From Macrostomum lignano (lineage: Eukaryota), in the NCBI GenBank assembly GCA_002269645.1, contig NIVC01000368.1, positions 186,001 to 250,000 on the forward strand: DNA of 64,000 nt. The letters are read 5' to 3'. The notes under the pieces were generated by a model that had not been told where the DNA came from, ran no database searches, and saw nothing but the letters and a program-made list of their open reading frames with translations. The position numbers were made by a program, and so were the translations under genes. Below, piece after piece: positions 12,438 to 53,363 of this stretch; within the stretch, counting starts at the first letter, position 1; each line of letters opens with the position of its first letter.

Positions 12438-12439
12438 CC

Positions 12440-12976: not shown

Positions 12977-13583
12977 AGTGTCGCTGGCAAACCTAAGCGG
13001 TCATTCGCCCTCCATTTGAGTTCAGCAATAGAAAAATCTTCAGTCAAAAGCATTTTTCTTCAAAATATTTGCCTCGCAGCTGCAAACTAAATTGAAAATC
13101 GTCAGAGAGCTCTGCTTGGCTTCCAAGCCTCAGCCCTGCCCTCCCTCCCCTCTCCATCTCTCTCCCCTTGTGTCTCAGCTGCCGCCCCTTCACCCCTGCC
13201 CACTGACAATGCACTTGCTATGCCGAGCACGCAGCGACAGTCAGCTCTCATTGTTTAACTCAGCAGAGCTCGCAGCATCCCACTGCTCCTGCATCTCTCA
13301 CCCCGCTGAGCAGAGCAGCTGCCGGACCCCCTGGCACCCAATCAGGCCTCAAACAGCCGCTGGGTCAGAGAAGAGAATCGGCCTCAGTCCATTTAAACAA
13401 ATTTCTCTGCACAGGGAGAGCTCAGAGATTTCAGTCCGTGACAACGGGACTTTTGCTGCTGCTGCTGAGCTGGCAGGCAAATTCGCTTGAAGAAGAGCAA
13501 AGCACTCAGTTTGAAGCCGTGTGGAACAGCTGCGGCAGACAGCAGATCGGCAGAGAAGCGCTGCTAGGAGAAGCAGTGTAGCC

Positions 13584-14434
13584 ATGGCAACAGAGATGGA
13601 GCGGAAGCTGAGAGCAGCGCTGGAGGCTGGAGACAGCGAGGAGCTGCAGCGACTGTGTCGTGAGGTCGGCAGAAACATCGAGCTGGAGGTGGGCAGCTTT
13701 GAACATACCTTACCGAAGGTTCGCCAAATGCCGCTGGTCCATCACGTGGCCTGCAAGCCGGTGAGTTCGTCGTGCCTGGAGCTGCTGATTAACAGATTCG
13801 GACCCAGCTGTCTGACACATAGAAATGACAGTGATCAGACTCCAGTGCACTTGGCAGCCCAGCATCAGGACGAGTCTTGGATGGAGCTGGTTAAAGAGAA
13901 GGGAGGCAGAGGCTGCTTGAGAATTGCCGATAGATGGGGACAGACAATCGCTCACTTTGCCGCTATGAACGGAAAAAGCAACTCTTGTCTGAAGTGGCTG
14001 GTGAAGGAGCTCGGCAGCGACTGTTTCACAGTTCCTGACGAAGACGGAGACACGGCCGTTCATTTGGCCGCTCAGCATCAGGGCATCGAGTCGCTGGAGA
14101 TGATCAAGAGACAGATCGGAACTGACTGCTTTCGGCTGAAAGGACTGTGTGATAGAACAGCATTTCACATTGCTGCTGAGAAGTCTGACAATTCAAATCT
14201 GAAGTGGCTGGTGAAGGAGGTCGGCAGCGACTGTCTCACAGTTCCTGACGAAGACGGTAACACGTCCGTCCATTTGGCTGCTCGGTGGCAGCCAGTCGAC
14301 TCTCTTCAGTTCATTTTTGACCAAATCGGAGCCGAAATGTTCAGCTTGAAGAACAACAAGGGCAAAACACCGGCTGATGAGATTTTTTGGTGCCGCACAG
14401 ACCAGTCAGCAAAGCGGGTATGGATTTCAGCTGG
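13584..14434 (+). CDS. Ankyrin-repeat/kinase gene, exon 1 (ankyrin repeats)
   Basis: Repeated DEDGDTAVHLAAQ, GQTIAHFAA, RTAFHIAA, GNTSVHLAA motifs; GTGAGT donor at 14435. Confidence 0.85.
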
Positions 14435-14939
14435 GTGAGTCCTGACTGAGAACTGCTGCCTGAACTGCTGCCTACTGGAAATATTGTTGGCGAAAAGTCA
14501 TTGAAATTCTCAGCAGCGCCACAGCCAAGCGAGGGCGTCACGAATTTGTTACGGCAGCTCCTCATGGCACCTCCACCCTCCCCAAAGCGCCCCACCCTCC
14601 CTATAATTGGCGCCCCGACCCCCATCCACAGATCAATTTGCAGGAGGAGCTACCATGAAGGAATAGTATGGATGGCTAATCTAGCCTACAATGAAGGACT
14701 TTAGCACAAAGACAGTTTAAGTGCCTGTCGTCATGGTGACCCATCAATATTTAACGATTGTGAAACTCTTCGACTTTTTGTATAAAACTGCTTGATTGGC
14801 TGAGATGACTTATTGGCGATAAGCCACCTGTAATGCAAAAACTAGCAAAGCCGGAAGTGACACGGTGATACTCAATATCCTGGGACTCTCATTTTCTCCG
14901 TTCTGAGCTCAAAAGAGCATGAGGTGGCAGTGACGCAAA

Positions 14940-15414
14940 AAGGTGGTGATGCAGAAGGGTGGTGACGCAGAAGGGTGGTGATGCAGAAGGGTGCAGTGAC
15001 GCAGAAGGGTGGTGACGCAGAAGGGTGGTGACACAGAAGGGTGGTGATGCAGAAGGGTGGTGATGCAGAAGGGTGGTGATGCAGAAGGGTGGTGATGCAG
15101 AAGGGTGGTGATGCAGAAGGGTGCAGTGACACAGAAGGGTGGTGATGCAGAAGGGTGCAGTGACGCAGAAGGGTGGTGATGCAGAAGGGTGGTGATGCAG
15201 AAGGGTGGTGATGCAGAAGGGTGCAGTGACGCAGAAGGGTGGTGATGCAGAAGGGTGGTGATGCAGAAGGGTGGTGATGCAGAAGGGTGGTGATGCAGAA
15301 GGGTGGTGATGCAGAAGGGTGGTGATGCAGAAGGGTGGTGATGCAGAAGGGTGCAGTGACGCAGAAGGGTGGTGACGCAGAAGGGTGCAGTGACGCAGAA
15401 GGGTGGTGACGCAG
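14940..15414. repeat. Intronic minisatellite, 16-bp unit GCAGAAGGGTGGTGAT
   Basis: About 29 copies; the last CAG (15412-15414) gives an in-frame acceptor. Confidence 0.95.
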
Positions 15415-15887
15415 AAGGCTGAGTGACTCCAAAGTACTCAGAAAGCCCCAAGCAACACAAAACTCATCGAATTCCTTCACATCATGTTTCAGCGCCAAGA
15501 AGCAGCTGGATCCCAGCTTCACCGACTGGGACTTCATCCTGCAGGACGACAAGAAGCAGCTCATCGGCCGTGGTGCCTTCGGCAAGGTGTTCAAGGCCCT
15601 CACAGACCGCAACCAGACGGTGGCTGTCAAAGTACTGCCTCTGTGCCAAGCTCAACAAGGGAAGAAATACCGAGGAACTGAAGAAAAAACTTCTGATAGA
15701 GAAGCGGGGAGTTGACATCATCAAGCGACTCTCGCATCCCAACATTGTGCAGTTCCTCAAGTGCGAGCAGAAGTCGGATGGGCTGTACATCTTCACCGAG
15801 CTGGTCTCGGGTCACAGCCTCTTTGAGCTGATGCAGCGTCAGAACAAGCCGTTCAAGGAGTCCGGGGTCAGGGACTTCTCCAGACAG
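15415..15887 (+). CDS. Ankyrin/kinase gene, exon 2 (kinase N-lobe), one frameshift near 15645
   Basis: IGRGAFGKVF and VAVK in one frame; LSHPNIVQF and IFTELV in the +1 frame; donor GTGCGT at 15888; exon start inferred from phase. Confidence 0.75.
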
Positions 15888-16068
15888 GTGCGTCTCTGAG
15901 TTCTCTAGGATTGCCTGACATGGGTGGGATCAGTGTGGGATCAGCGTGAGATCAGTGTGGGATTAGTATGGGATTAGTGTGGGATCAGGTATGGAGTCAG
16001 TGTGGGTGGGATCCAGAATGATTTTATGATTTTAACAATTTTATGACTCAGAACTTCTCAACCTGCAG

Positions 16069-16554
16069 ATCTGCTCAGGCCTGAACTTCCTGCACTGCCA
16101 GCCGCAGGGCGCCATCTTGCACCGTGATATCAAGAGCTCCAATGCGATGCTCACAAACGAGGGTGTCATCAAGCTGATCGACTTTGGTCTCGCCAAGGAG
16201 ATCGTCGGTACCTGCGGCCTGAGCACAGGCGTCGATCCCAAAGGCACCTGGCACTTCATGGCGCCCGAGCTGTTCATGGGCGAGGACGACTCGATTCCGT
16301 ACTCAGCCAAGACCGACGTGTGGGCCTTCGGCTGCACCGTGTATGAGCTGACGGCCATGCAGCCTCCTGACGCGAACGTTCCGCAAAGCAGGATCGGCGT
16401 TTTGAGGTGCGGAGGGCGGGCGATGCCTCGGATTTCGGACGGGTTCTCAGCCGGCCTGAAGGACTTCTACCTCAGGTGCGTAGACTATGACCCGAGGAAG
16501 CGAGCGGACACCGCGGAGCTGCTGCGGCACAGCTTCCTGAGTGCCTCATCGTGA
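16069..16554 (+). CDS. Ankyrin/kinase gene, exon 3 (STE/MAP3K-like C-lobe)
   Basis: [34 protein letters not shown]; acceptor CTGCAG ending 16068. Confidence 0.9.
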
Positions 16555-17099
16555 CTGCGAGAGCGACGGGCTGTGAGGGAGCGGAGCGACTCTTGAAGCG
16601 GGCGGCTTTGCTTGCCGACGTTGTCTGTTTTTGCTTTTCCGATTGCCCTTTTATTTATCTGATTGCATATTTTTAAATCAATTGTTTTTTGTTTATCCGC
16701 CTTTTTTGTTTGAATTGCTCAGAGTTTGAACTTAGAATTGTTTTGTCTATCAATTGTCTTGATTTGACTGCAGGGTTTGTTTTACCGGTTGCTCCTTTCA
16801 ATCAATGAGACATTTTTGTGCTGCCTCGAGTGCCATTTCAGTTTGAAGCTGATAAATGTTAATTTTGAAACTCTGGCACAAAGCCAGTCACAATTTCCCC
16901 AATATGCACAGACTGCTCAATGCCTACTCCATATTTTCTGTTGCCGAGAATTCTTCACATTTTTAGCCACCGGTTCGGCGCTTTTCCGGCTCTGATTTTT
17001 GTATTTGATTTTTGGACTGACTTTTTATTAGCAACTGTTGGAGCAGGAAGTCCAGTGCTTTCTCAAGAGTTCTCAGTTAAATAATAGAGACACCGTTTG

Positions 17100-17372
17100 G
17101 CTTGCCGTGACCCGCTGTGTCCTGACTTGCCGTGACCCGCTGTGTCCTGACTTGCCGTGACCCGCTGTGTCCTGACTTGCCGTGACCCGCTGTGTCCTGA
17201 CTTGCCGTGACCCGCTGTGTCCTGACTTGCCGTGACCCGCTGTGTCCTGACTTGCCGTGACCCGCTGTGTCCTGACTTGCCGTGACCCGCTGTGTCCTGA
17301 CTTGCCGTGACCCGCTGTGTCCTGACTTGCCGTGACACGCTGTGTCCTGACTTGCCGTGACCCGCTGTGTCC
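17100..17372. repeat. Minisatellite, 25-bp unit CTTGCCGTGACCCGCTGTGTCCTGA (~11 copies)
   Basis: Direct tandem copies. Confidence 0.97.
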
Positions 17373-17604
17373 CATTTCATATTTCAATATTTCGCAGCAT
17401 CATTTCTGAACCCCACTCAGTGCAATGCACAGAACAGGTGGGGAAGGCAGATCTGATGAAGCAGGCATGCAGTGAAGCTGGCCATTGTTTTCAAAGGGCT
17501 TGCAGTGTCATGAGGTCTGAGGCTGCCTCACGGCTCGGCCCCTCACGCAGTGAGCAGGAGATGTGCAGAGCCCTTAACTGCACAGACGCTGCAGAGCTGC
17601 TCCA

Positions 17605-18048: not shown

Positions 18049-20285
18049 ATGCACACTCAAAGAATCAAAGGCATCACGGCGCGAATGGAGCTGATTGACG
18101 GAGCGCAACCACAGTTCTGCAGAGCTCGGCTCGTGCCACTTGCGCTGGAGGAGAAGATTAACACGGAGCTCGACCGGCTACAACAGCTGAGCGTGAAAAA
18201 ATCAGACGATTTGCTACGCATGTGTGCGGACTATAAAATACATGTAAACAAAAAGATCAAGTCAGAGTCTTACCATATACCGTCGATTGAGTACCTGCTC
18301 TCTAAACTGAAAATGCAAAAAAGTTTGCAAAGATAGATCTGAGATCGGCGTATTGGCAAATCGCTCTGGATAAGGAGGAATTGTCCAACATCAACACATC
18401 CCGGGGCCATATCGCGTCACGCGTCTTCAAATGGGGATGAAAAATGCATCCTTTATATTTCAAAGAGCGATGGAGAGCATTTTGGCCGATCTCAAAGGCA
18501 TTCTGATTTACCAGGAGACTCGGCTGCTGGAAAAGAAGGTTACGATCAATGAGAGCAAATGCATCAATATGAGTGACGAGATCTCTTTCCTCGGCTTTAA
18601 GGTTTCCGCCGCTGGCATATGGCCAGACGATCGGTTGGTTGAGAAAGTGCGCCAATTTGCTCCGCCGACATCCAAAAAGGAGAATGAGCAGTTTCTCAGA
18701 CTCGTTAACTTCTTTGGGCGCCTGATCCCAGAGTTCTCATCAAAGGTCGCTCCACTTAACAAGCTGCGTAAGTCAGGCGCCGCCTTCGTGTGGACCGACG
18801 AATGCCAACGTGCATTTGACCAACCTAAAAAAGAGCTCTCTTCTCAGCCGGTCGTTCAGCCATACAGTCTTGATAAGGAAGCGACTTTGACCACCGATGC
18901 ATCCAAAGGGGCTCTTGCCGGTGTCCTGACTCAGGAGGGTCACCCTGTAATTTATATTTCCAGGACTCTATCGGAGGCCATTGTCTGGGCTGTCTCTCGT
19001 TTGAAGCATTACCTACAAGGTTGAAAGTTTGAGATCCACACTGACCATCAGCCGCTGCTCCGGCTCTATGGTGGCAGCATTCCTACCGGCACCTCGGCGA
19101 GAATAAGCAGATGGGCACTTTCGCTGATGCAGTTTAATTTCGAAATCAAATACATCCCAGGCTCAAAAATTCCTCATGCCGACGCTCTGTCTCGGCTGTC
19201 TTTTCTGAACGGCAAGCAAGACAAAGAACCCCCCGAAACAGCTCAGGCAATTAACTGCGTCACCTTTGAAACTTCGACTATCGACTCCACCCGCATTGCT
19301 TCAGAGTTGGCTGGCGATCCCCTCATGCCGAGAATTTTGAGCCGAATTCGCTCAGGTGATTGGAAAGGCTGTTCAGAGGCTGTTACCTTTCAAGAAGATT
19401 TCGGAGTGCCTGACGCTCGAGAACGGGACTACTGTACATGCGTCGACGAGTTTTTATCCCTCTGCGTCTTCGGATATAGGCCTTTAATGCCATCCACGAC
19501 ACCCACTCAGGCGTGGCTGCAGCCTATAGCCTTCTTTCGCTATCGTGCTGGTGGCCCGGCATGCAGAAGGACGTCGAGCAGTTCGTGCACCAGTGTTCCG
19601 TCTGCAATTGACTGCAGCCACGCCTATTGAAAATGAGGGATCACTGGCCACCCGCAACAATATCATTCCAGAGGGTCCACATTGACTGGGCATTCGTACA
19701 AGAAGCAGGAAATCTGCTAATTGTGGTTGACGCGCATACTCGGGTTGGATCGAAGCATTTCCTTCACCGGACAGGTCCGCAGCCAATGTAGTGAAGTCCT
19801 GGCTTCGGGCTAATGGAGCGCAAAAAATGGAAACACCCCCTACTCGCCGCAGTCGAATGGCACAGCTGAAAGAGCCGTTCAGACTGTAAAAAGGGCTTTG
19901 CAAGCTGGACCCAGTGACTAACCCACTCCGATTTCACCGCCTTTCTGCAGAAAGTCCTTCTCCACCATCGCAATTCATCCAACGCGCGTGCATGGTTCGA
20001 CGCCCGCTGAACTGGTCTTTGGTCGTCGGCTGCGCGTCCCGGTAGTTTCAACCTTCCAGCAAGGCGACCTCGTTGGCTACAAGGCAAAGCGGACACTCCC
20101 ACCAGAGATGCAGAATTTCTGATGACCCAGGGACAGAACACCTCCTGGTTGCTAGCGGACAATGCGCTTTGGTCAGCAACAATCAACTCGCGCCTCTGAG
20201 CCACAGGCTGCACAGGCCATACCGACACGGAGGAGCGAGCGAATTCGAATGGAACCCGACCGCCACAGGCCATAGAATCTGACAC
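18049..20285 (+). pseudogene. Decayed Ty3/gypsy (Mag-like) pol: RT, RNase H, integrase remnants
   Basis: DLRSAYWQI, MGMKNASFIFQRAM, TDASKG, TDHQPL, HADALSRL, RVHIDWA; stops, frameshifts, and the YxDD segment is deleted. Confidence 0.88.
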
Positions 20286-21380
20286 GTAGCTATCCCAATG
20301 AACCAGTTTAATAACTCACTATGTTGTGTCACAGACTACTTTAAGTTCAGATCAGAGCCACGTGTTCAGGCTCCCAGACGCTTTACCCAGTTTATATTCG
20401 TTGTTACATGTATAATCTATGAAGGCTTTTCTCCGGAGGGGTGCATGACATGGATCGGCTATGCTATTGTTTCTGTTTGCGTTTCTGCAATTCTAAGTTT
20501 TCGTAGTTCTGTCAATGTGCTAAAGTGTTGCAACGGTTAAAAGTACTTTAAGTTAGTAGACAGGAGTGTAAGACAACTTTTTGGCTTTGTTAAATTTCTC
20601 CATGACCCAATCAATTATTTCCGCCCCCCAACCAAGGCTTCTGTCCTGCGGCATTTTGACTGACACCCGCAAGAACCTCAAACAGGTCAGGCGACTTTGA
20701 GCATGATGGGGCTGCCTGAATCTCGGTTGGATTCTGCTCAATGCTCATGCACTCCATCTCAGAGAGTCGTGCACCTGCTTTGGACTGCACCAAGTTGGTG
20801 GCCCTTTTCGTAGATACGTTTCTTAAAAAATCGAAATCAAGTTCAAATTAAGACAAACCAAACTTTTAAACTTTAACGCGGAATAAACTCAAGTCTGCTA
20901 ATTTTTTAATAATTTCAGCAGAAATAAACACCGTGTATCTGAAATTTGATAATTTATGCACATGCTGTAACTATTAAGAAAATGCAATTTCTTTTCCATT
21001 GGAAAATGCGACTGTAACTTTAAAGTACAAGTGCACTCATATTCAATTTTACAAGAACGTTAATAAATTTTACCGTAAATAAAACAAAACAGAGCACACA
21101 AAGCAGGGTTATTTTTAGAATAAAAAATGCAGAACGAAAAATTTGTTATAAATTTATCAAAGACATCCAAGTAAATAAGCATACTGCGTACATACTACTT
21201 ATTAGCATTTCTCGGTCAACAGTGCCCTAAAAATCCCAATTTCATTGTCCTTAATCCCATAATTGCAGAGTTGCCGTGCCATCATCCTTGTCCTTTAATA
21301 TGAATTGAATCCGAATTTCTGAACACTCTCCAGATTCAATTCTGATTAAAAAATCGACACCGACTCAGAGTCACAAATTG

Positions 21381-21852
21381 TGAGCACAGTTTAATCAACC
21401 CAAGCTTATTAAGCACAGTTTAACCAACTCAGGCTTACTCAGCACAATTCAACCAACTCAGGCTTACTGAGCACAGTTTAACCAACTCAGGCTTACTGAG
21501 CACAGTTTAACCAACTCAGGCTTACTCAGCACAATTCAACCAACTCAGGCTTACTGAGCACAGTTTAACCAACTCAGGCTTACTGAGCACAGTTTAACCA
21601 ACTCAGGCTTACTGAGCACAGTTTAACCAACTCAGGCTTACTGAGCACAGTTTAACCAACTCAGGCTTATTGAGCACAGTTTAACCAACTCAGGCTTACT
21701 GAGCACAGCTTAACCAACTCAGGCTTACTGAGCACAGCTTAACCAACTCAGTCTTACTGAGCACAGTTTAACCAACTCAGACTTATTGAGCACAGTTTAA
21801 CCAACTCAGGCTTACTCAGCACAATTCAACCAACTCAGGCTTATCAAGCACT
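21381..21852. repeat. Minisatellite, 29-bp unit GAGCACAGTTTAACCAACTCAGGCTTACT (~16 copies)
   Basis: Direct tandem copies just past the PALB2-like stop codon. Confidence 0.97.
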
Positions 21853-21868
21853 TGAACAACAGCTGCAG

Positions 21869-22671
21869 TCAGTCAATGCAAAGACACAAGCCGCTGTCAC
21901 CCGAAGCACACGGCAGCAGGCACAGCTGCATCGGGCAATGGTTCACCAGCAGCCGATGGAGCTGAGACGCCAGTCTCCAGCTGCAGCAATCGGACAGACA
22001 GGCGGACTGGAAGCCACAGCTGCCGTACTCCAACCGATGCAGCCTGCCGCTGTCTATGGCCAAGAGTCGGCCGGGTCGGAGACAAACCACATCTGCCCAC
22101 CGATGCAGCGGCTCAGACTCGCGGCTCAAGCGGAACCGGCTGATTAGACAGGTGCCAGACGGTAATGATTTATGATCATTACTGATTTTTGAGCACAGCA
22201 ACAAGACTTCGCTGTTGTCAGCCGACAGCAAGTGGCATAGCAACAATCGATCCTTGAGTCTGAACTCGCACCAAATGAGACAGCAGTCAGCAATGTGCTG
22301 CTCACTGCTGAATTCTTCGCAATAAATATTAATAACTGTGTCCGGCACTGACTGGACTTCAGCTGGCGCAGTCAGGCAGCAGTGGATTTGATGGCAGCGG
22401 CAGCACAGCCAGGCAATGCTGGATTCGAGTCCCGCAATTTTCAAACCCCTGTGCCTGCTGGGATCGCCTTGGATGCCATCGGCTCTGCACGAGACTGCAC
22501 AGCTGATCTGGCAGTTCAACAATCTTCGCTCAACAAAGCAGCAGTTCGCGTCCAGCAGCACCGCCTCTCCATCGCCCACGAGCCAGCCGAGTCCGCTTGA
22601 GGATGCAGAAATAACTGTAGAAGCTGTGGGGATAAAATCCACGCTGCTGCCACCTGACCAGGGAAGCGCGC
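21869..22671 (-). CDS. PALB2: PALB2-like gene, exon 2 (WD40-like propeller)
   Basis: LTAPAEVQSVPDTVI resembles recalled PALB2 LTFAEVQGMQEALL; C-terminal HRWADVVCLRPGRLLAIDSGRLHRLEY resembles the last PALB2 blade; phase-1 CAG acceptor at 22673-22672. Confidence 0.6.
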
Positions 22672-22704
22672 CTGCGGATTGGTGGGGCAAATGGTGGATT
22701 GTTA

Positions 22705-23778
22705 ACTATGGTAGCTTAATCTGGTATCTGGGAGGCTGGTAGCTTTATCTGGTATCTGGGAGGCTGGTAGCTTAATCTGGTATCTGAGAGGCTGGTAGCT
22801 TAATCTGGTATCTGGGAGGCTGGTAGCTTTATCTGGTATCTGGTAGGCTGGGAGCTTATTCTGGGGATCTGGGAGGCTGGGAGCTTAATCTGGGGATCTG
22901 GGAGGCTGGGAGCTTAATCTGGGGATCTGGGAGGCTGGGAGCTTAATCTGGGGATCTGGGAGGCTGGGAGCTTAATCTGGGGATCTGGAGGCTGGTAGCT
23001 TAATCTGGGGATCTGGGAGGCTGGGAGCTTAATCTGGGGATCTGGAGGCTGGTAGCTTAATCTGGGGATCTGGGAGGCTGGGAGCTTAATCTGGGGATCT
23101 GGGAGGCTGGGAGCTTAATCTGGGGATCTGGGAGGCTGGTAGCTTAATCTGGTATCTGGTATCTGGTAGGCTGGGAGCTTAATCTGGGGATCTGGGAGGC
23201 TGGGAGCTTATTCTGGGGATCTGGGAGGCTGGTAGCTTAATCTAGGGATCTGGGAGGCTGGGAGCTTAATCTGGGGATCTGGGAGGCTGGGAGCTTAATC
23301 TGGGGATCTGGGAGGCTGGGAGCTTAATCTGGGGATCTGGGAGGCTGGGAGCTTAATCTGGGGATCTGGAGGCTGGTAGCTTAATCTGGGGATCTGGGAG
23401 GCTGGGAGCTTAATCTGGGGATCTGGAGGCTGGTAGCTTAATCTGGGGATCTGGGAGGCTGGGAGCTTAATCTGGGGATCTGGGAGGCTGGGAGCTTAAT
23501 CTGGGGATCTGGGAGGCTGGTAGCTTAATCTGGTATCTGGTATCTGGTAGGCTGGGAGCTTAATCTGGGGATCTGGGAGGCTGGGAGCTTATTCTGGGGA
23601 TCTGGGAGGCTGGTAGCTTAATCTAGGGATCTGGGAGGCTGGGAGCTTAATCTGGGGATCTGGGAGGCTGGGAGCTTAATCTGGGGATCTGGGAGGCTGG
23701 GAGCTTAATCTGGGGATCTGGGAGGCTGGGAGCTTAATCTGGGGATCTGGGAGGCTGGGAGCTTAATCTGGGGATCTG
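22705..23778. repeat. Intronic minisatellite, 29-bp unit GGGAGCTTAATCTGGGGATCTGGGAGGCT (~36 copies)
   Basis: Fills almost the entire PALB2-like intron. Confidence 0.97.
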
Positions 23779-23799
23779 GTTATGGCGGCTGCAGCTCAC

Positions 23800-24505
23800 C
23801 CATCAGCTGCCAATGAGGCCAAGAATGGTCGCCAGTGTCGCAAGTGCCCAGCTCTGTCAGCATGAGAGCCACAGCCTGGGGATAAGCTACAGCCAGGAGG
23901 ATTCGCCCAGCAACAGCCCGGCAACACTTGGCAACAACGCATCGGCCCAGGCTGAGCTGTCGAACTCGATCACCGGCCAGCACGCTCACACAGTCCGCTC
24001 CGGTGTCCAGCACAACCACACTGCCGAACTCCTCGCTAGAAGTAGCGCACATGACTTCAGTCCTACCCTGGTCTTGGTTGCCATAACAACCGGGTGCCAA
24101 ACTGAGAGCCCGTATCTCGCAACAGGCGAAACAAGATTCTGCATCAACATCGACAGGATCTACCTGCTGGTTGCCATGGTAACTAACAGGCACTGTAGCC
24201 TGGCATCCCGGGTCAGTTTTATCCCGAATGGTGACGTCATTATCATCGCATTTGATTTCAAACAAATCGCCGCTTGTGTCCATTGGGATTATGACGTCAT
24301 CAGTTACTTGATCGATTACGTCATTCTCCTGATTAGATTTAGAAGTGGCCGCATCGGCAGAGGCCGCGTGTCCTTCGCTTCTTTCCAAAAGCCGCCGCTT
24401 TTTATGCAATTCTTTGGTCAACTGCTCGAGCTTAGCGGCCAGAGCGTCTTTGGCTTGGCGGCTGCTGCTGTTGCTGCTTTTGCTGCCACAAATGTTGGCA
24501 CTCAT
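23800..24505 (-). CDS. PALB2: PALB2-like gene, exon 1 (N-terminal coiled coil plus start of WD40)
   Basis: KDALAAKLEQLTKELHKKRRLLERSE aligns with recalled PALB2 [26 protein letters not shown]; ATG at 24505; G|GTGAG donor; spliced ORF is 502 aa. Confidence 0.6.
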
Positions 24506-27735: not shown

Positions 27736-28308
27736 CAAATCTCGAAATCATAATTCAATTAATTTTTACTAAGATTATAGATGAAATTAAACGAAGATTA
27801 ATAAGCTACCTCGCTCTGGTTAAATATCTTGATTGAATTTATAAATTATTCAATATAATTCAATTAAAAAGGTTTTTTGTTGGTTAATTCAGTTATTTTT
27901 ATCAGAAAAGTAATTTTTACATAGTTACACTCAAAGACAAATGATTTTTAATTTACAAATGCATTTTGAAGTGCAGATATTTCACTCACTGAGAAGGGTC
28001 AAAGGGACAATAAAAAAGTGTCAAACGAAATTGCTCCAGATTTCACAGTTAAACCTTACAACATGTTGGCAGCATAATTATTACTTAAATCGAACCATTT
28101 CCTTCTCATCAAGTCCGCTCACCAACATAATACTGCTAACAGCGGGAAAGCCCGCAGAAATGAGTGATACTAAAAATAACTACAGCATTCCGCTATTTCC
28201 AGCTGCGCAACCTTAGCCAATCCAGGAGAAGCGCTACTTTTGATTGAATTACATTGTTAACCATTTATTAGGCGCACAGAAACCGAGGACACCCGCAAGC
28301 TATCGGCA

Positions 28309-29289
28309 TTGGTCGCCCAGATGGAGGCGACGATCAAGACAGTGAACAACAGACCGCAACAGCCATGGAACAATCCACGCCAGCAAAGCGGAAACGCCGC
28401 GACAAGCTGCCAGTTATGTCACAAGCAGGGACATACGGCAGACAGGTGCTATCAGCGCAACCGACAGCAAGGCGCTAGCCCAGGAAGCAGCCGTCAACAG
28501 CCACAAGGAGCCAGAGGCACCAGCAGAAACTGCAACAATTGCGGTAAGCCTGGCCATTTGGCCGCTCAGTGCCGACGTTATTGTCACCATTGTAAGCAGA
28601 AGTCTCACTGGACAGTTGAATGCGACCGCCCGAGCCCCCAGAGACAGGGCCAACCGGCTCAGCGTCAAGGATACCCGAGCAACAGGAATAACGGCTATCA
28701 AGGTCCTCAGCACAATAACGGCTACCAAGGTCCTCAATACAACAACGGCCGACCAAATCAGCAACGGCAACCACGACAAATCGCGGAAGTAACCGAGGAA
28801 CAACCTCAGCAACAGCCACCGGCAGACATTCTAGCTGTGTCCACCCAGGAAGAAGAGAAAACAGCGGAACCAGTGGTGACTCGCGACGACATCATTCAAG
28901 CTCGACGACAGCTCCGCAAAGCAGCAAAGGTCAAGATTGGCTACAATATAGCGGTGACACCAACACCGCAACCACGGCAAACCGCAGAAGTAACCAAGGA
29001 GCAGCCTCAGCAACAGCCACCGACGGACACTCCAGCAGAGTCAACCAAGCAAGAAGAGACAGTTACGGAACCAGTGGTAACCCGCGACGACATCATTCAA
29101 GCCAGGCGACAACTTCGCAAGGCAGTCAAGGTCAAGATCGGCCACATCACGACGGCGACACCAACACCGCGCTCCGAGAGCGACCGGACTGAGAAGCAAG
29201 AGCGACCACGAAAGATCGAGAAATGTCCTGACACTGACGAGCCCAAGCCACAGATAGCGATTCGACAGCCGAGAACTACACCGACATGA
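28309..29289 (+). CDS. gag: Gag C-terminal part: three CCHC zinc knuckles and a duplicated 67-aa module
   Basis: CQLCHKQGHTADRC, CNNCGKPGHLAAQC, CHHCKQKSHWTVEC; ends at TGA 29287-29289. Confidence 0.9.
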   Translation: MVAQMEATIKTVNNRPQQPWNNPRQQSGNAATSCQLCHKQGHTADRCYQRNRQQGASPGSSRQQPQGARGTSRNCNNCGKPGHLAAQCRRYCHHCKQKSHWTVECDRPSPQRQGQPAQRQGYPSNRNNGYQGPQHNNGYQGPQYNNGRPNQQRQPRQIAEVTEEQPQQQPPADILAVSTQEEEKTAEPVVTRDDIIQARRQLRKAAKVKIGYNIAVTPTPQPRQTAEVTKEQPQQQPPTDTPAESTKQEETVTEPVVTRDDIIQARRQLRKAVKVKIGHITTATPTPRSESDRTEKQERPRKIEKCPDTDEPKPQIAIRQPRTTPT

Positions 29290-31209
29290 AGCCAAAGCCG
29301 ACGAACAGCCTCAACCACAGGATGGCTGCTGCGAATACTACTGCTCGCACTGTTCTGCACCGCGGCTGGCAACGCGACAACGGCACAGCACAGCAGCTAC
29401 GTGGACACACCGCTCTACTGCCCAGAAGCGAACAGCCTTCAAGCCTTCAAATTGCCTCCGGACATCGAATGCACAGTCCCGAGTAGCATTCAACAGCATC
29501 GGCAACCGATCAACATCACAGTCTACAAGGAGAACCAGGTATCACACCGGTCTACACTGAAGATATGTTACCGAGAGACCTACACGTTCACGAGTAAGCC
29601 AAAAGATTCCGCTCTTAACCGTCTTTCAACGGAGATGGTAAGTCCAGCCATGACTGTTACTGTGCAACAACATTCAGTTTCGAAGGACGATTGTAAAACA
29701 TGGGAAGAAAACACCCGAACCCAAGATGGGACGTTAGAACCAGGAGCTAAAACTATGGGACAAGCCAAACGATTCATTACCCATAAGTGGACAACCCAGG
29801 AATTGGAACCTACAGCCAGCACAGCTCAAACCTTTACTCAAACAGTGTCAGTCCTAATCACCCAGGTCTCATTCTTTGTGGAAGAGAAAAAGATGTCTTC
29901 GTTAGCCCTCCCTATAGGTCAATGCGACTACAAGACAGGAACCTGTACCACGACTACTAGCCTCACGGCAGAGAAGGACTCGCCACTGAACCGACAGGCA
30001 CCAGACAGACTCTGGGCCGTAATGGAATACTATGATCTCAGCTACACAGTGAGAGGAGATAGACAATACCGCCTAGTATGGACACCCAGCGCAGAAATAG
30101 ACTGCCCCTATCAAACAGACAGATTCATTCAAGGCAAAATTCACACTGGATGGTTCATGTCTAACGACGCTACGTTTGCCCTCACATTCAAACACCCACC
30201 TCAGACTAAGGACTTAAAATGTGGAGACACGACAGTAAAGCTATACAAGTCGGAACAAGGTAAACTAGTCCAGGTGCACGGCTCAGACCAAGAGTTTCGC
30301 AGCATAATTGAAGGCTCATTTAACAATTCAAGCACTGCTAAGAGACCAAAACGAGACCTCACATCGGACACAACGCTAGCAGCAAAATTACAAGGGCTAG
30401 AACTCACAATGGAAGACAGAATAGGCGACCTTACTCGAAACATGATACTACAACAATGCAAGCATCAGCAAACACTGTTTCGGTACATAAAAGATCTCTT
30501 TCTCATGCAGCCCACCCTAGCAGCGCGCACTTTGTTCAAAGACAGCCAATTAAAAGCCACCACGCTAGCACAGCATGTAGTCATTTCTAAGTGTCTACCC
30601 ATCAGAAACTTTCGTTTTCACCAACCAAGATGGGATGAGAATATCTGCTTTACCAAACCACCAATTGCCTTCACTATATTCAACATGAACCACACAGGCT
30701 TTCTAGATATCAGAACCCTGGAAGTCCAAAAGGAACACCCGCCGTTTCACGATTGTTCTAACCAAACGTCGTATTTTCTACCAAAAGGAGACGAAATCTA
30801 CAAAACAGACCTCAACTTTACGAAATTTACTGTGCAAACGGTCACTAAGCTAGAAAGAGAAGCGTGGGGGGTAACCCTCATAAAACCCCCAGAGATTCAG
30901 CATGTCATATTCACTCCTGATGGAGACATCAGGATAGCCGATCTCAAAAGCCCTGTCACAGTACACGACCTGTACAACCAGCTAAGTGACCAGAGAGAGT
31001 TCTTAAGAACTGTTTTCAAACTGCCCAAGTCAGAAACCTCTCACTCTATACATCTTCCACCGTTAGATGCCACCATAGCGGAAGGCACCTTTGATCCAGC
31101 AAGTTGGCTACCATGGCTAGGCATGCGAGTGAATCTTTTCGATATCGCTGTAGGAGTAGCTGCCATTGGATTCTACATATATCTTTTATACCAAATGATC
31201 CTTATCTGC
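29290..31209 (+). CDS. env: Env-like class III (gB/chuvirus G-like) fusion glycoprotein region of the polyprotein
   Basis: Signal-like WLLRILLLALFCTAAG (29323-29370); N-glycosylation sequons NIT, NNS, NHT, NQT, NFT; furin site RPKR (30343-30354); gB-like helix AAKLQ...QCKHQQ...QPTLAARTL...ATTLAQHVVISKC; TM 31144-31209. Confidence 0.8.
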
Positions 31210-31499
31210 CACAGACTCAACAAACAAAAGTACCAACGTCCTGGCATCCGCACGATCCAGCGCAAAGCTGCTGCAAAGCAAGAACAGCAGGAGCTACAGG
31301 AGTTAAGAGCACCGCTAGTAACGAACTCGACAAGCCAGAACACGCGGCAGGAGACCACGACAACCAGACAGGCACCACAGCGCCCGCCACCGTGGACGCC
31401 ACCAGCACCAGCATCAACAGGACTCTACCCGAAGATAGAGTCCAGTTGGCCACCTCCGATGGTGGCGACGATCAACAACGGCCAGAAGCAGAAGTACAC

Positions 31500-34400
31500 A
31501 ATCACCCGACTTCAAGTGGGAACGCGATCCTGCCGAGCCCTGATCGACAGTGGAGCCGAACGATCCTTAATCGACGAAACCACAGCAAAGCGATACGGCA
31601 AGACCTTCAAGCCGGCCACAGTTGAACTGCAAGGAGTACAAGGCTCACGACTACAGCAATCCGGCATGATCAACCTCCCTGTGGAAGCTGGCGACACCAC
31701 GGCTGACGTTGAGTTCCATGTTATTCCTAATTTGAGTTCAGGAACTTATCAAGTCTTATTAGGCATCGATTACTTATCTCAACTAAATCAGGGCGTGCTC
31801 GTAAACTATCAGCAACAGAATATCCATCTCAACGGAAAATGCTATGACATCCTCGCTATCACTACAAAAGAACCCGTTAACTGCATCAGATTAGTCTCTA
31901 CAGTCAATCTCAATCCATGGGAAACAACTCGAATTTCCGCAAGAGCCATCGCCAGAGAGAAACTACCTCCAGCTATGCTTTTCGAACCCAACGAACGTAT
32001 CCTGGAGAAGAAACCCATTTGCCTTACACCCGAATTGGTATACCCTGACGAGTCAGGAGAGGTTCAAGTCATCATTTCAAACGAATCGGCAACCCCAATG
32101 ACACTATATCCAGACACCAACATAGGATCTTTCGATACAGAAATCCAAGCCTTTGAAATTGCTGAAATCCAGTCAGAAACCCCAACAATGACGGAACAAG
32201 AATTCAAGAACGCCATTGATCTCAAAGGATCCAACCTGACAGAATCCCAGAAAGAACAGCTCATTAAGGTTCTCTGGGACAACAAGAAAGCCTTTTGCCT
32301 ATCCGAGGAGGAAATAGGATACACAGATGTAGCGAAACACGAGCTTCACATTAAGCCTAACGTGGAGATTAAGCTCAACAAACGATACCCAATCCCATAC
32401 CAACTCACGGGAGAACTCCAGAAGATCATCGATAGAATGGAAATGCAAGGAATTCTTAGAAAAGCAGCCACCCCGTACATCTCACCAATTCTACTGGTCA
32501 AGAAGAAACCGGAATCGCCTCAAGCCAAACCAGTGTACCGTCTCTGTGTTGATTTTCGGGACCTCAACCAAATCCTGGTCCCAGAAAGGCAATGTATGCC
32601 CCGAATCCCAGACCTCTTAGCCAAATTAAAGGGATCAGAATATTTCACTACTCTCGACATGGCGCAAGCATTTTTTCAAGTGGCGCTAGAAGAAGAAAGT
32701 CAGAAGTATTGTGGCATCTCCACGCCCGACGGACAAACTTACGTCTTCACCAGAGCCCCAATGGGTCTACAAACCTCACCAGCAGCCCTCTCTAGAGCAG
32801 CTAGCTTAATCCTTCAAGGGATTAACAGAGTCTCAACATACGTAGACGACCTACTTGTCTTCAATGAGACATTTGAAGACCATCTCGAGACATTGAAAGC
32901 TACACTAGAAGCTCTAGGAAAGTACGGCATGAAATTGAAATTACAAAAGTGCAAATTCGCTAAGCCCACAATCACATTCCTAGGACATAAGATAGACAAA
33001 AATGGAATACAGATTGATAGAGCTTTAGTCGACAAAGTGCAGAAGGTACCAAAGCCACAAAATGTCACACAGCTCAGATGTTTCCTAGGACTCTGCAATT
33101 TCTTTCGCAAACACGTACCTAACTACGCCAAGAAAGCCAAGCCACTCACAGACCTGCTTAAGGGCACACCGAACACTAAGGCTCAAGCATCCAAAACCCC
33201 ACTAAAGTGGACAGAAGAAGCGACCCAGACCTTTGAAGACATGAAAAAATGGATAGCAGAAGATCTCAGGCTCACTCACCCTGACTTTAATAAACAGTTC
33301 ATTGTCTCCAGCGACGCTTCTACAAAAGGCATAGGCGCAATGCTCTCACAGAAAGATGAGACAGGAAAAGAAAAACCAATAGCATTCACGAGTCGACAAC
33401 TGAGAGAGGCAGAGACAAGATATGCGGTCACCCATTTAGAACTCTTAGCCGTCTTTTACGCATTCAAGACATTCGAACAATTTCTGTACGCAGCGCAAAT
33501 ACCCACATTGCTAAGAATAGATCATGCACCACTCAGAGGTCTACTCACAGGGAAAACCCTGCGGAACAATCAAGTACTCAGATGGCTTCTATATTTACAA
33601 CAGTTTCAAATGCAAATTGAGTACGTCCCAGGCGCATCCACCAAACACGCAGTCCCAGATGCACTCTCAAGACTATATGAGGACCAAGAGACACCCATTA
33701 ACTTTGTCACGATCAAGCACCCGATACCACACCTGCAAGCCTTAAAAGAGGCTCAAGCAGAAGACCCATTCTGCCAAGGCATTCGAGCACTATGGGAACA
33801 AAAGCCCATGGATGACAGCTTAGCTATGAGATACAAAAGACACATCCAGCGACATCTATCGGACTATGCGGACATTCACGGAATCATCCACAGGACAGCA
33901 GATCACACCCAACAAATAGTGCTCCCATTCAAGTACCGTGAAACAATCTGCCACTCGTTACATGCACTACCACTAGCAGCGCATTTAGGCTTTGACAAAA
34001 CCCTAGAAAGAATTAGGCGACACTATTTTTGGATCTCAATGGTTTCCGATATTCGAACCTTTTGTCAAGACTGCATGGATTGCGCTAAGAACAAATCTGG
34101 CCAACTGCATAAGGGACTCATCCAAATGCCTGAAATTCCGATGAAACCAATGGACAAGCTATCAGTAGACCTAGTAGGACCCATGGTCCCCACGAAAATC
34201 CGGAACGAGACCGTCACCCACATCCTGACTATCCTGTGTTGTTTTTCAAAATTCGCCTTTGCATTCCCGATTCCAGATCTATCAGCAGAAACCACAGCCG
34301 AAACTTTGTTCCAAGTCTTCTGTACGTTTGGAATCCCGATGGAAATTTCCACCGATAATGGAAAAAATTTCACGGCATCGCTATTAGCTGAAGCTCTAGA

Positions 34401-35160
34401 AATTCTGGGAGTCAAGCACATCTTCTCGTCTACCTACCATCCGCAAGCAAACCACGTAGAGAGACTACACTCTACCCTACATAACATGCTTAGACATTAC
34501 ACTGCGGAGAATCCAAACGAATGGCATAAATATCTATCAGCCACAATCTACGCCTACAATACAGCCAAGCAATCCTCTTCAACCTATTCTCCCTTCGAAT
34601 TGGTTTTCGCGAGGAAACCCCTGATGCCCACAGAGCTCACAACTCAGCTGAACCTAGTAAGATACATGGATGAGCCGTCCTACGCAGCCCGAATGCAAGA
34701 AGCTATCACCCTGGCTAGAGACATAGCCAGACACCATCTCAAAGTGGCCCAGGAAAAGAACACAAGCAGAGCTAACAAAAACCGAATGGCCCCTACATTA
34801 GCCATAGGCACCAGAGTGATGCTACAGATCCCAATGAGACAGGGAAAGCATCAAGCCAAGTTCACGGGTCCATACGAAATTGTGAAAAGAAATAGTGCCA
34901 CGTCCGTAATGATAAGGAAAATTGACGATCCGACTCAAGAACCCTTTCAGGTGCACACGGACAGGCTAAAGCCAATAGCATCGCCAACACCCAAGGTACT
35001 GCTCCCCGATCTGCGCCCGAGTGATCCGCGAAGACTGCAACGCCAACACAGGCAACTGTTCAGCAAGGAAGTGGGCGTACAAGCTGATGACGAGACGCTC
35101 GCGGACACAGTTCGAAAGAAGTACAATCTGAGGAGCAAACCCATACTCCTAGACAAATGA
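31500..35160 (+). CDS. pol: Pol region (aspartic protease, RT, RNase H, integrase), in frame with env
   Basis: ALIDSGA (D at 31546), LDMAQAFFQV, YVDDLL (32839), SDAS, LHALPLAAHLG..CQDC, SVDLVGP, STDNG, HVERLH, YNLR; no stop from 29290 to 35157. Confidence 0.95.
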
Positions 35161-35319: not shown

Positions 35320-36102
35320 ATGTATGACCGACAGCTCGATACGCTAGATGACTGTACCCTGGGAGACGAAGATACCCAGACACCGTGTCCTATAGTTCGA
35401 CCTCTCTTCAAGCCAACATCTCACACCGAAACCGATGACCCTAAGTGGCCCGAGCAAGATATGTCAACATGGACAGAACAACAGCTGGACAAGCTACGAC
35501 AGGAATGGCAACGACGCCGACCTACGCTCCCACGACAAGCAAGCACGGCAACATCGGCGAGCAACGATTTCCACCAGGCTAAAACACTCGCAGAGCGATT
35601 CCAAACAGCTCTGGCGGCACAGACGGTAGTTCAAAGCAAGCCGGCGCGGTATGATGAAACGAAACTGTTTGACATTCACCAGCAGATGCTTGACATGCCA
35701 CTAATACCCGCTAACATCGTCACACACCTTACTACGCGACGCATCCTGTCAGATCCTAAAGACCCACGCTGGTTACTCTCTGACTATTCTATCTTGAACT
35801 TCAACACGACGCTCTTTTTCCTCTACGACGACACAGCTGCGTTCTCTTGTCTCCGTATCATAGTATGGAACAGCAGGGTGACGACAACCCTAATCCATCC
35901 TCGTGGACCGACCAGCACACTATCACTCCAAGCCGACATGCTTATCACTTATCTACTCAACACCTTAAATTATCACGGCATCGAAATCAAACCCAAGGAA
36001 CGGCAATCGATAGCCACGATTGCGTATTCACCGGCCAACCTACAATGGCACCACCTTTTCACAGCGTTGAAAGCAGCAGAAGGCCCCAACCTGGACCCTT
36101 GA
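35320..36102 (+). CDS. Accessory ORF3 of element B (260 aa), unknown function
   Basis: ATG immediately follows a polypyrimidine/CCAG acceptor (35318-35319). Confidence 0.7.
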   Translation: MYDRQLDTLDDCTLGDEDTQTPCPIVRPLFKPTSHTETDDPKWPEQDMSTWTEQQLDKLRQEWQRRRPTLPRQASTATSASNDFHQAKTLAERFQTALAAQTVVQSKPARYDETKLFDIHQQMLDMPLIPANIVTHLTTRRILSDPKDPRWLLSDYSILNFNTTLFFLYDDTAAFSCLRIIVWNSRVTTTLIHPRGPTSTLSLQADMLITYLLNTLNYHGIEIKPKERQSIATIAYSPANLQWHHLFTALKAAEGPNLDP

Positions 36103-37226
36103 GGTGCTAGGAAGGCCCGGTTGCAAGAGAACAAAAAGGATAATACAAGGGATGAAATACTGCCCTAGGGTTGTAGCGAATTGGTGGGATACCAATCCGC
36201 CTCATCCCTGAGGCACCTTCACCCACAGGTACGCTCCTTTGTTCAATGCAGCCTCACAGCAGGGCGGTCTACTCTTGGGATAAGACTAGACCAAACGAAA
36301 GTGAATTTTTGAAGCCAGCTACAACGCTATATAATCTAACACTAACCACATTAACCCGGAAACAAACTGTATCCACAAATATTCCTTATTCTGATAATTT
36401 TTGTACCTGAATTTTATCTCTCGATATATCCACCATGTTACGCTTTACTCTCAACGCCGTGATATTCCACGCCCTCCGACACTTATATTAGACCATTTAA
36501 CGACTGCACACTAACGTTTTACTGCCTTCTGCAGATTTCTAACATCTTATATCTTACTATAGCAGAAAACACACCGATAACAGATGAATTAAATCCTTGT
36601 TAGCACAAGGATTTCGAAAAAAGGGGGAATCATATAAGAGTTAGAAATCTGAAGTTTTGACCCTAAGTTAGAAGATAGGTAGAAATTTATGAAAAGCCCA
36701 GGCGCAGTGAAGGGCGAGGCAGAAGAGTACAATGGAACCCCTAGATAGCTATTAGAAAGGCGAACAGAAGCAGCGTTAAGATAATTAATCAACTGTCAAG
36801 TCAATTTGAATAGCCGAATCTAACAAAGCCTCTTTCCATTCCAGTTAGTAGCGTCACCCCGCCGCAGGCACAATGGCGACTAAACCGGCCGGGAAAAGCA
36901 AACTAAGCAGCAGCCTGACTTAGAGAACAACGCGGCACGCGGCATCTTCTGGCGCACCCTGAGGGAGAAAACGTGAGGCCCACCTACAGACTCCTACCCA
37001 ACCCGAAGCTGCCCGAGAAGGCCAGATCAACCCCAAGCTGCTTGACAACCGAGAGAAACAGAGGACTGTTTAACCATTCATGGACAGAGTGTAGAGACGG
37101 AAAACTAAGCACTTTTTCTATAATCTTTCTATCCCAAATTTTATCCAACTCAACACATAGATTTGCGAAAGCCCGAATAATCTCTAACCTTCACACTTAG
37201 CAACCAACTAGAACTAACTAAATTCA

Positions 37227-37750
37227 TGTACAATTAGGGGACTGAGTCCCAGTTTGTTATTGCTCAAAACCCCCCGCCGTTGCTAACAACGCGAAGACAC
37301 CCCACCGGCGGCGGGGGAGGCCAAACATGCTAATTGGTACAAATAGACGCTCATCTCAAACTGGAGCGGCGCCTCGTTTTTTTCCTGCGCAGTTTCGATC
37401 TTGAATTGCTCCATTTGAATTAGCTTCTGGATTATCCGGTTGGCAGAAACCAGAGTCTCAAATCGATTATTTGCCTTAACTATTGCGTAAAACGAATACT
37501 AGACAGAATCGAACTCAGCTTAGATACTAGGATATCCCGTCAGTTTATACGGTCTTCTCTGACGGCCTGATAGGAGAGACTAAGAGCTGTAAGAACCTTA
37601 GACCGCTAGACATCTATCTTAAGAAAGTGAGAACACGAACTCAAAGGCCCCAGAGAAAGACTCGTATACTAGCTAAGTAGTGGCGCCATTATACGCTCGT
37701 ACAAACATAAATATGGCGAATAGGTTTTAGCAAATTAATAAGAACATACA
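37227..37750. repeat. Candidate LTR of element B
   Basis: TGTA...TACA termini on a GC-balanced segment before AT-rich flank; no plus-strand PPT seen. Confidence 0.35.
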
Positions 37751-38897: not shown

Positions 38898-39842
38898 GTC
38901 TGAATGTTAAAAAATTCAAAGTTGTGTAATATAAATTTTAATTTTTGTCAAGATTAATAAATATACTGCTTATTTAAACTTCTATTTTTAGTGAGTGAAC
39001 ATTTACTTTATTGCTTAACATAGTTTTTTTAAAAGAATTTTCATAGAGCAAAACAAGTTTGTTTATGTAAAATATATATTAAATGAAAGTAGTGCATTCA
39101 AGTATTTTTCAATTCCACATAGCTGGCCAATATAGACAAGTTTTGGCCTACAATTCGGTTTTTATATTTTATTATATGACACATTCTATGAATGTTTTAT
39201 GTTTACTATACAAATTATCTTTTATTTTAATTTTATTTAGACATCATAATATCAATCATATATTTCATGTATATGATATTAACTAGTATTTTTTATATCT
39301 ATGAATAACTTGTAGCATCCAAGTGTTTTAGTTATTAGGCCTAGTAGAAATAAGGGCATTCTTTCGTTTTACGATCCCTGAGCAGGTCAAGTTTTATCTT
39401 ATGATCCCCAAAAAAAAGAGTTGAAAAGACACTCTAGTTTATCAAAAAGTACATTTCACATTTATTTTTCAAGAAAAAAATCACTGCAACTCACTTTCTA
39501 GTCAACTTAAATCATCACTGCAACTTACTTTTCAGTCAACTTGAGGATTGTGGGTGTAGCATAGTTATGAAAGCATATAGCTTATATTCACTTTGTCATA
39601 CAATCATTTAAATGGTGAAATTATGTGTAGAATGATCGCAGGACAAAACCAAAAGAGCTTGTAGGTTTTGAATTATGATCACCGCATTAGTAGAATTGTA
39701 TTGAAGGGATTGTATGATGAAAGTGAATGGATTGCTATGTCCTAAATTGCTATATTAACTGATCATTGTCACTCTATGGACTGTATCTTAAAACTGTATT
39801 TGTTATAAAATTTGCATGCGTCGGCGTACACTGCCCCCCCTC

Positions 39843-40922
39843 ACTTTTGTTATACAATCACCCCTTGGTATAACACATAGGTCCAATGAACTGGGGATCG
39901 TTAGACAAAAGTTAGGGGGTACCCAAAAAGGGTGCAATATAGTTTATTTAGTAAAAAATGCTTCTTATGTGCGCCACAGGGACTTGGCTTTCTATTTACA
40001 GACATATTGTAGAGAGGCTAGCTGCAATTGATTGTTTAGTTAAAACGTCTATTATAGCAACAATTTTCTACCATTTTGTCATACAATCCCTCCAATACAA
40101 TTTTAACATTAATGTGATCATAATTCAAAAACCTATAAGCTTTTTCAGTTTTGTCTTGCAATCATCTACATATAATTTCACTATTTAAATGATCATATGA
40201 TGAAAGCAAATACCCTATAGGAAAAAGTTGTAAAACCGCGGACGGTGTCCGGCGCACTTTTGAAATTTTTCTAAAGCGCAGCGCGCGCACAGGCGCAGCG
40301 CCTGCGCGCGCGCTGCCCTTTCTTACTGGCTGCTGCTCTAGCAAATACATATACATGGAAATGGGTATAATACCTCTGTTGAAGGGGCTTATATACTCGT
40401 AATTTATTAAGCTTAGAGATGTTCCAAAAATTCAATTTCCAAAATTTGAAATTTTTTAGAGCGAATTTCAATTTCGAAAAAAAATTTAGAAGTGAAAATT
40501 TTGGTAGTGTCTAAAAAGTCGCTAAAAATAAACTACTTTCTACTAAATATACATGTATTACTTTTTACTTAAGCAGTAAATTGAAAGTAAAAAAGTGAGT
40601 GTTGATCATACTAAACTTTGTTTTTCTGAATTATGATTTCGGGAAATTTCAATTTTGATTTTGGAAAGTTAGCGAATTTTTATTTCGACGAAACTGCAGA
40701 TCTTTCGGAACATCTCTAATAATCCTAAAGCGCGGTAAAATAGTTTGACTCTTTTCTAAAGCGCGCGTCCGCGGGTTTTTAACATTTATTCCAATAGGGA
40801 GCAAATATAAGGACACTTCTAACTTCTGTAGGACACAAGATTTTATATTAAAATGATATGCTTAGAAGTGGTCCTATTTTGAACTTTGATTTGTCTTCTG
40901 TGGGGGATTGTATAACAAAAGT
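39843..40922. mobile_element. Inverted-repeat-bounded segment (possible MITE)
   Basis: ACTTTTGTTATACAATC at 39843 and GATTGTATAACAAAAGT ending 40922. Confidence 0.45.
40213..40799. mobile_element. 587-bp MITE with perfect 8-bp TSD
   Basis: TSD AGCAAATA at 40205-40212 and 40800-40807; imperfect ~32-bp TIR CCCTAT...AAAACCGCGGACG. Confidence 0.85.

Positions 40923-53296: not shown

Positions 53297-53363
<67 letters not shown>

Follow-up and report, generated by a model that had tools for sequence, protein, structure and literature searches.

A class III (gB-type) envelope gene within a Gag-Env-Pol reading frame of a Ty3/gypsy element from Macrostomum lignano

The window analysed here is a 64,000-nucleotide stretch of Macrostomum lignano DNA (GenBank assembly GCA_002269645.1, contig NIVC01000368.1, positions 186,001 to 250,000), and it contains, on its forward strand, a damaged copy of an LTR retrotransposon with an envelope (env) gene. 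The recognisable element begins with a 5' leader remnant (28109-28281) whose sequence matches the leaders of three two-LTR copies at 95%; upstream of 28109 there is no match to the full copies, and this copy lacks the 5' LTR, the primer binding site (PBS) and the remainder of the leader. The 3' half of gag follows (28278-29286), with CCHC zinc knuckles (Pfam zf-CCHC) and a Q/P/T-rich spacer, about 1.27 kb including the gag start having been deleted just before 28278 relative to full copies. A stop codon at 29287-29289, present in this copy only, lies between gag and a frame of 1,956 codons (29290-35160), of which env forms the N-terminal third and which also encodes protease, reverse transcriptase, RNase H and integrase (PR-RT-RH-IN). 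The pol part of the frame (31501-35160) has the protease DSG motif at 31546, the RT YVDD motif at 32839, RNase H, and an integrase with zinc finger, core and C-terminal domain. Downstream are an accessory reading frame of 260 aa, ORF3 (35320-36102), a polypurine tract (36616-36629) that is the same in the full copies, and a 3' LTR of about 1,036 bp (36633-37668) with TATA...TATA ends and 96% identity to full-copy LTRs. About 1.1 kb has been lost before the polypurine tract. With no 5' LTR, a truncated gag and a stop before env, the window copy is dead and 5'-truncated. Its layout is gag-env-pol, which the earlier note on this DNA had missed.

Four other long copies of the family, about 98% identical, are present in the host genome. 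The gag/env boundary is open in all four, each of which is broken elsewhere, and none of the five copies examined is free of breaks. Programmed read-through as an explanation of the stop at 29287 was dismissed, since none of the four other copies has a stop there. The ATG that overlaps this stop was also discarded as a separate env start, because the short frame beginning there, when inspected, does not run into env. Insertions of the family are shown to be recent: the LTR pairs of the three two-LTR copies are 99.9, 100 and 99.9% identical, and these copies have 5-bp target duplications. The target duplications, in 3/3 two-LTR copies, together with one solo LTR fix the LTR ends as TATA...TATA. 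Canonical TG...CA ends, which are typical and not obligatory, are found neither in the window's family nor in its sister family, both of which have TATA...TATA, and the integrase would consequently join TA-3' ends. TA...TA ends have been described for AtRE1 of Arabidopsis (10.1101/137141). TATA...TATA ends were also seen at loci L021, L024, L025 and L081/L082, and the LTRs of other sibling families appear to begin with TG. In the full copies, the first 13 bases of the PBS are complementary to the 3' end of host tRNA-Glu with CCA added. A 201-bp tandem duplication (28764-29165, 81% identical), also present in the other copies, lies in the spacer that separates gag from the internal signal of env.

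Several other features were noted in the window and near family copies. A PBS-like TGGCGCC lies 12 bases after the 3' LTR (37669-37690), and may be due to chance or be the remnant of an LTR element hit by the insertion. LTRs of the family adjoin what, by eye, look like pieces of a protein-primed DNA polymerase and of a dUTPase and a phospholipase A2 motif (L088 2934-4840, L074 and L075), which suggests insertion into Polinton/adintovirus-like DNA. Pieces of a second, degraded gypsy-like pol, comprising RT thumb, RNase H and integrase zinc region, were recognised by eye at 18374-19630. Nested, MITE-like inverted repeats occur at 39596-40200 and 49508-49765, and dense minisatellites with units of 8-65 bp at 7965-9031, 12137-17422, 21294-23925 and 52188-63672, some with extreme strand skew.

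The RT supports assignment of the element to Ty3/gypsy. Its best match in the PDB is the Ty3 RT (E 5e-56), the pol region matches Pfam PF17917, PF17919 and PF17921, and the element gives no Pfam match to the BEL/Pao marker PF05380, which is matched at 151 other places in the host genome. In a tree with five BEL/Pao RTs from the same genome, the RT is on the gypsy side of a starred branch with support 100; this and the other RT trees used here are quick trees of small samples, and 15 rows with no YxDD match were dropped from the BEL/Pao comparison. The earlier note had also called the element gypsy, and the lineage stands. Its argument, from an integrase placed after RNase H, does not, since BEL/Pao elements share that order and it cannot separate the two groups.

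The envelope region is bounded by two hydrophobic segments. The first, at 29323-29373, was located by hydropathy and is at the same site in the 15 polyproteins examined; it is a predicted internal signal sequence (TM1) with a presumed cleavage site. The ectodomain (29374-31146) has about 590 aa, with 12 cysteines and five of the six sequons of env, the sixth being at the predicted signal end. A putative furin-type site, RPKR (30343-30354), is at the place of the furin loop of herpesvirus glycoprotein B (gB), and in a profile alignment it is matched to the basic cluster of gammaherpesvirus gB. It is followed by the predicted central helix of domain III (30370-30507), of 46 residues (residues 329-374 of the model described below, block pLDDT 65-96). 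The transmembrane anchor (31147-31218, TM2) continues in frame into a basic segment and then a Q/P/T-rich linker, with about 125 aa to the protease. The earlier note had placed env at 29401-31209, which is residues 38-640 of the 29290-35160 frame. The residues it quoted (RPKR, DLTSDT and TLAAKLQGLE...MILQQCKHQQ...SKCLPI) are all present in that frame, and its N-terminal YC..C pattern (LYCPEA...IEC) and sequons were borne out. Its single transmembrane segment gives way to the two hydrophobic segments above. Nor is env a gene of its own starting at 29401, as the signal sits just outside that start and env is fused to pol.

That 29323-31218 encodes a class III (gB-type) fusogen was confirmed by sequence profiles and by the predicted fold. 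The env sequence matches Pfam PF24664 (Monjiviricetes_fusion) with 29.3 bits, above the cut-off of 27 (E 2.9e-7). Glycoprotein_B itself (PF00606) matches residues 365-513 with E 0.007, below its cut-off; this is the region in which the gB central helix and domain III had been recognised by eye in the earlier note, a reading with which the 46-residue helix after RPKR agrees. An exhaustive protein search with E up to 0.001 gave 61 proteins, of which 59 were aligned with the ectodomain, P0031 (a false match with EF-hand and ankyrin repeats) and P0056 being excluded. One relative, P0042, has a NADAR domain N-terminal to its env-like region. When the profile of the relatives was compared with the PDB, 52 of 53 matches were herpesvirus gB, extending across almost all of the ectodomain (best E 1.5e-25). 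As all 61 proteins stay below the Pfam gB cut-off, the profile contains no herpesvirus gB and yet finds gB in the PDB. When the window row and the four rows closest to it were removed from the profile of the relatives, the ectodomain scored 275 bits against it and the best shuffle 4.2 (200 shuffles, 187 reported); since the relatives were found with the same query, this control is a measure of family coherence and not of independence. The env sequence alone gave ten matches to PDB sequences, all weak and unrelated, and none among 6,527 candidate proteins of near length, the relatives being long polyproteins outside that length range.

An AlphaFold monomer of env had pLDDT 74.5 and pTM 0.50, and contained the 46-residue helix. 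In a Foldseek search of the PDB every listed row was gB (best E 6.8e-16), with no class I or II fusogen among the listed matches. Global TM-scores were about 0.26-0.37 and rmsd values large, as would be expected from a multi-domain monomer modelled between conformations. An independent structure aligner put six gB chains on top (Z 11.4 to 6.6), followed by thogotovirus glycoproteins, PH domains and rhabdovirus G. The whole chain of HSV gB aligned over 386 residues with Z 11.4 and rmsd 9.5, and domain IV of pseudorabies gB with Z 10.8 and rmsd 3.8 over 167 residues. The PH domains aligned to a model range of about 33-315 (Z about 5), and a PH-like domain with an inserted fusion domain was found, the fusion-loop regions being of low confidence (120-138, 161-165 and 201-204). 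Among predicted viral structures the best match was nyamivirus G (E 2.3e-24), with chu-like rows at ranks 27 and 35. Of the family earlier named for this envelope, herpesvirus gB and chuvirus G, the gB part was upheld; chuvirus G is outranked as a structural match by nyamivirus-like G.

The fusion of env to its neighbours is not peculiar to the window copy. The host genome has 77 env matches, 16 of which are in stop-free frames of at least 2,450 codons, and at seven of the eight sibling-family loci fetched a single frame holds CCHC knuckles, TM1, env with a furin site, TM2, PR and RT. Outside the host genome, a gag or pol Pfam domain was found in the same chain in 19 of 24 mostly longer relatives scanned. 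Across 15 polyproteins the ectodomain has 510-595 aa (807 in one) and the distance from anchor to protease is 90-161 aa where the motif was found. The charge bias of the positive-inside rule fits TM1 in 12/15 of these and TM2 in 9/15, failing for TM2 in 6/15; the signal-peptidase pattern used was a permissive one, applied without a control. The 10-kb stretch of a full copy is covered in each of its 30 bins by contigs from three sequencing runs guessed to be RNA and one run of unknown kind, and one contig spans 8,377 nt of it with no joints listed. As contigs drop rare forms, this coverage neither shows expression nor excludes splicing.

We consider it likely that this is the env of a Ty3/gypsy 'errantivirus' in the wide sense, from a family with Gag, Env and Pol in one frame that is expressed by way of a membrane-spanning polyprotein. 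The topology is a prediction throughout, made from sequence and models; Gag and Pol would be on the cytosolic side, Pol as the tail of Env, and Env itself would follow an internal signal into the ER lumen. Flavivirus polyproteins are an analogue of this layout. Translation would begin with Gag in the cytosol; the internal signal would then direct the ectodomain across the ER membrane, where signal peptidase would cut it from Gag, leaving Gag attached to the membrane by the signal stub. Transfer would stop at the anchor, and PR-RT-RH-IN would emerge in the cytosol as the tail of Env. The ectodomain would be glycosylated, trimerise and be cut by furin. Gag and the Env-tethered Pol could then meet at one membrane and bud, with the protease freeing RT and integrase, and the trimer would fuse the particle with another cell, most plausibly giving the element access to the germline or to stem cells. 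The env would have been gained long ago from a class III pool common to mononegavirus-like viruses and herpesviruses, and would have travelled with pol since.

A Gag:Env:Pol output of 1:1:1 would be awkward for a capsid, which normally needs an excess of Gag, and it is likely that a spliced or prematurely ending gag message is needed as well. The same need for Gag favours an account in which the fusogen fold is the same and Gag, Gag-Pol and Env are made separately by alternative splicing or recoding, the continuous frame being only a trace of the insertion. A methionine within 30 residues before TM1 in 6/15 relatives, and a conserved CAG directly before the ORF3 ATG that suggests the use of splice acceptors, are in line with this account. 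In the window's own family, however, the nearest methionine is 334 residues upstream of TM1, and around the gag/env boundary the five long frames checked lack a -1-register slippery heptamer of the tested pattern. Both junctions are, moreover, open in families with about 35% identity between their RTs, as selection for read-through would leave them. Separate expression is thus possible but doubtful. That env is a vestige, or has an intracellular role such as assembly scaffold or receptor interference in an element that never leaves the cell, we regard as unlikely. Herpesvirus gB needs partner proteins for entry, none of which is encoded by the window element, and for most gB-type elements infectivity is not known according to PMC13524379. 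Set against this, the ectodomain is under strong purifying selection (pN 0.24 and pS 0.82 for env in comparison with a sister family at 61%), and the furin site, cysteines and anchor are kept across families.

The earlier note had implied a separate capture of a gB-like gene. A recent one, from a chuvirus or another RNA virus, is very improbable, even though the nearest predicted viral structures are RNA-virus glycoproteins, as with the nyamivirus G above, and the env label requires four changes on the RT tree across hosts, so that several captures are possible at depth. The starred branches of that tree force only one change, and a single origin of all ten env-bearing RTs tested was not rejected (AU p 0.305). 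Identity of env to viral glycoproteins is 9-16% in the structure matches, against up to 39% to other retroelement envs. The host-genome families form one RT clade in two quick trees (95 and 100, both starred) and one env clade (94, or a starred 100 with one further row), in small samples that left out BEL/Pao env and viral env. Since both trees unite these families, env would have been in place before they split. Named nematode relatives (Heterodera, Meloidogyne, Globodera and Bursaphelenchus) fall apart from them; an organism name was available for four of 20 relative clusters looked up, all four nematodes. The association of env with pol thus appears old rather than a fresh capture, and an ancient acquisition is also argued in PMC13524379. 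With the env and RT trees in agreement, and gB-type env on gypsy elements already published there, the case for independent capture as something new finds no support.

ORF3, which has 29 matches in the host genome, is under purifying selection. Its dN/dS is 0.25-0.28 against two copies at 77-79%, and 39-44% identity is kept in sister families with saturated synonymous sites. CAG directly precedes its ATG in 4/4 copies inspected, which resembles a splice acceptor and suggests that the element uses such sites. No informative match was found in Pfam, PDB sequences or the ESM Atlas, none of 756 candidates in the protein collection matched, and 0/32 pattern matches in metagenome contigs were informative. 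A model built from seven sequences had a mean pLDDT of 57, with most values at 60-85 in the C-terminal domain (about residues 102-257), for which a Ulp1/SENP (clan CE) fold is predicted. Compared with 48,161 chains, ranks 1-10 were of the Ulp1/SENP/NEDP1/XopD type (Z 7.9-11.0, rmsd 3.0-4.0 over 137-152 residues), with more clan CE proteases below rank 10; a second fold search agrees, and the best viral structure match is a Ulp-like protease (E 5e-5). In all seven copies AF stands for the HW of host SENP and HP for DS, and the last helix has no Cys at its start, the register having been taken from secondary structure and aligned ranges and not from a residue-level superposition. ORF3 therefore appears to have no recognisable catalytic His, Asp or Cys. 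None of the seven members matches PF02902, and hhalign against five host SENP domains gave a probability of 0.3%. With the motifs missing and profile alignment failing, the clan CE assignment rests on a model of moderate confidence. A complex of the ORF3 domain with host SUMO, folded without an alignment, gave a score of 0.00 that bears neither way on binding. ORF3 might be a pseudo-protease that binds a ubiquitin-like modifier.

Sibling families have one or two Cys-rich, RING-like ORFs after pol (L073 290-994 and L060 511-981, both on the minus strand, L067 9007-10000 and L090 1-420), three of five tested giving RING Pfam matches below cut-offs. One of them begins with an MG motif, suggestive by eye of myristoylation. 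We offer tentatively, and as a rather doubtful proposal, that a flavivirus-like Gag-Env-Pol polyprotein is combined with an exchangeable post-pol slot for counter-defence against host ubiquitin/SUMO, filled either by a dead Ulp1/SENP decoy for SUMO or SUMOylated silencing factors, or by RING proteins. If true, an LTR element would here encode an antagonist of SUMO-dependent silencing, a counterpart of the accessory genes that complex retroviruses carry. The Ulp1 fold in one clade and the RING-like ORFs in another would then point to ways in which retrotransposons counter SUMO/ubiquitin-based silencing, with concrete proteins to study.

Known systems share parts of this arrangement. Ulp1 proteases are described on the DNA transposons Ginger1 and Mutator (PMC2836005), and ORF3, by its model, likewise puts a Ulp1/SENP-type fold on a mobile element. 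The Ginger1/Mutator domains match PF02902, whereas ORF3 stands alone on an LTR element, has no sequence match and is without HW and DCG. The extra ORFs described for rotifer LTR elements include neither Ulp1 nor RING (PMC5408684), and Cer1 is reported to have no stop between gag and pol (PMC10309623). A literature search, with most subscription journals outside it, found no report of such a membrane topology and no Ulp1-fold ORF on such an element.

Among fusogens, the window env resembles the class III proteins (herpesvirus gB, nyamivirus, bornavirus and chuvirus G, thogotovirus Gp and rhabdovirus G) in its domain arrangement, long central helix, PH-like domain and furin loop. It differs from these viral proteins in being only 8-18% identical to them and shorter than gB, in having no N-terminal signal of its own, and in a cytosolic tail that continues into Pol. 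Tas is among the BEL/Pao elements with a gB-like or chuvirus-like env, in which env is after pol. They carry the same class of fusogen on an LTR retrotransposon with another RT lineage than that of the window element; mosquito elements are a further case (Dezordi et al. 2020, as cited in PMC13524379).

Nearest to the window element are gypsy elements with env before pol. RTs of plant-parasitic nematodes form a clade separate from the host-genome families. Nematode endogenous retroviruses are reportedly built with a continuous gag-env-pro-pol frame, a nyamivirus-like env and small extra ORFs, and a single gag-env-pol frame is thus probably in print already; nyamivirus G is also the best viral fold match here. 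For nematode elements of this kind, env before pol on a metavirus was reported by Sacco et al. 2022 (J Gen Virol, PMID 35550022, as cited in PMC13524379).

The closest published counterpart is the work of Chary and Hayashi (eLife 2026, PMC13524379), who describe gB-type env on Ty3/gypsy elements across animals, with the order GAG-ENV-POL in Nematoda, Bryozoa and Platyhelminthes. The window's family resembles their HSV/gB-type errantiviruses in its Ty3/gypsy pol, a gB-type env between gag and pol, an ectodomain between two hydrophobic segments, multiple near-identical copies and a host-associated clade. One of nine flatworm rows in their supplementary file 1 lists a 12-nt PBS, which is that of sibling loci L060 and L067; for the remaining eight, no PBS is listed that could be compared. 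The flatworm element with the listed PBS is not that of the window's family, in which the PBS is a different one (tRNA-Glu), the LTR is longer and the ends are TATA. The main text of that paper does not contain 'single ORF', 'polyprotein', 'fused', 'Ulp1', 'SUMO', 'RING' or 'accessory', and its figures or repository may show a single frame. A gypsy element with a gB-type gag-env-pol layout is therefore of a published kind, and the window element, itself a dead copy, represents a new family within it; its env adds one family to the published class. How a gB-type fusogen works without a gH/gL partner is named as unknown by Chary and Hayashi, and the layout proposed here, if borne out, would bear on that question; its single frame predicts that Pol is packaged without frameshifting, tethered to the tail of the envelope.
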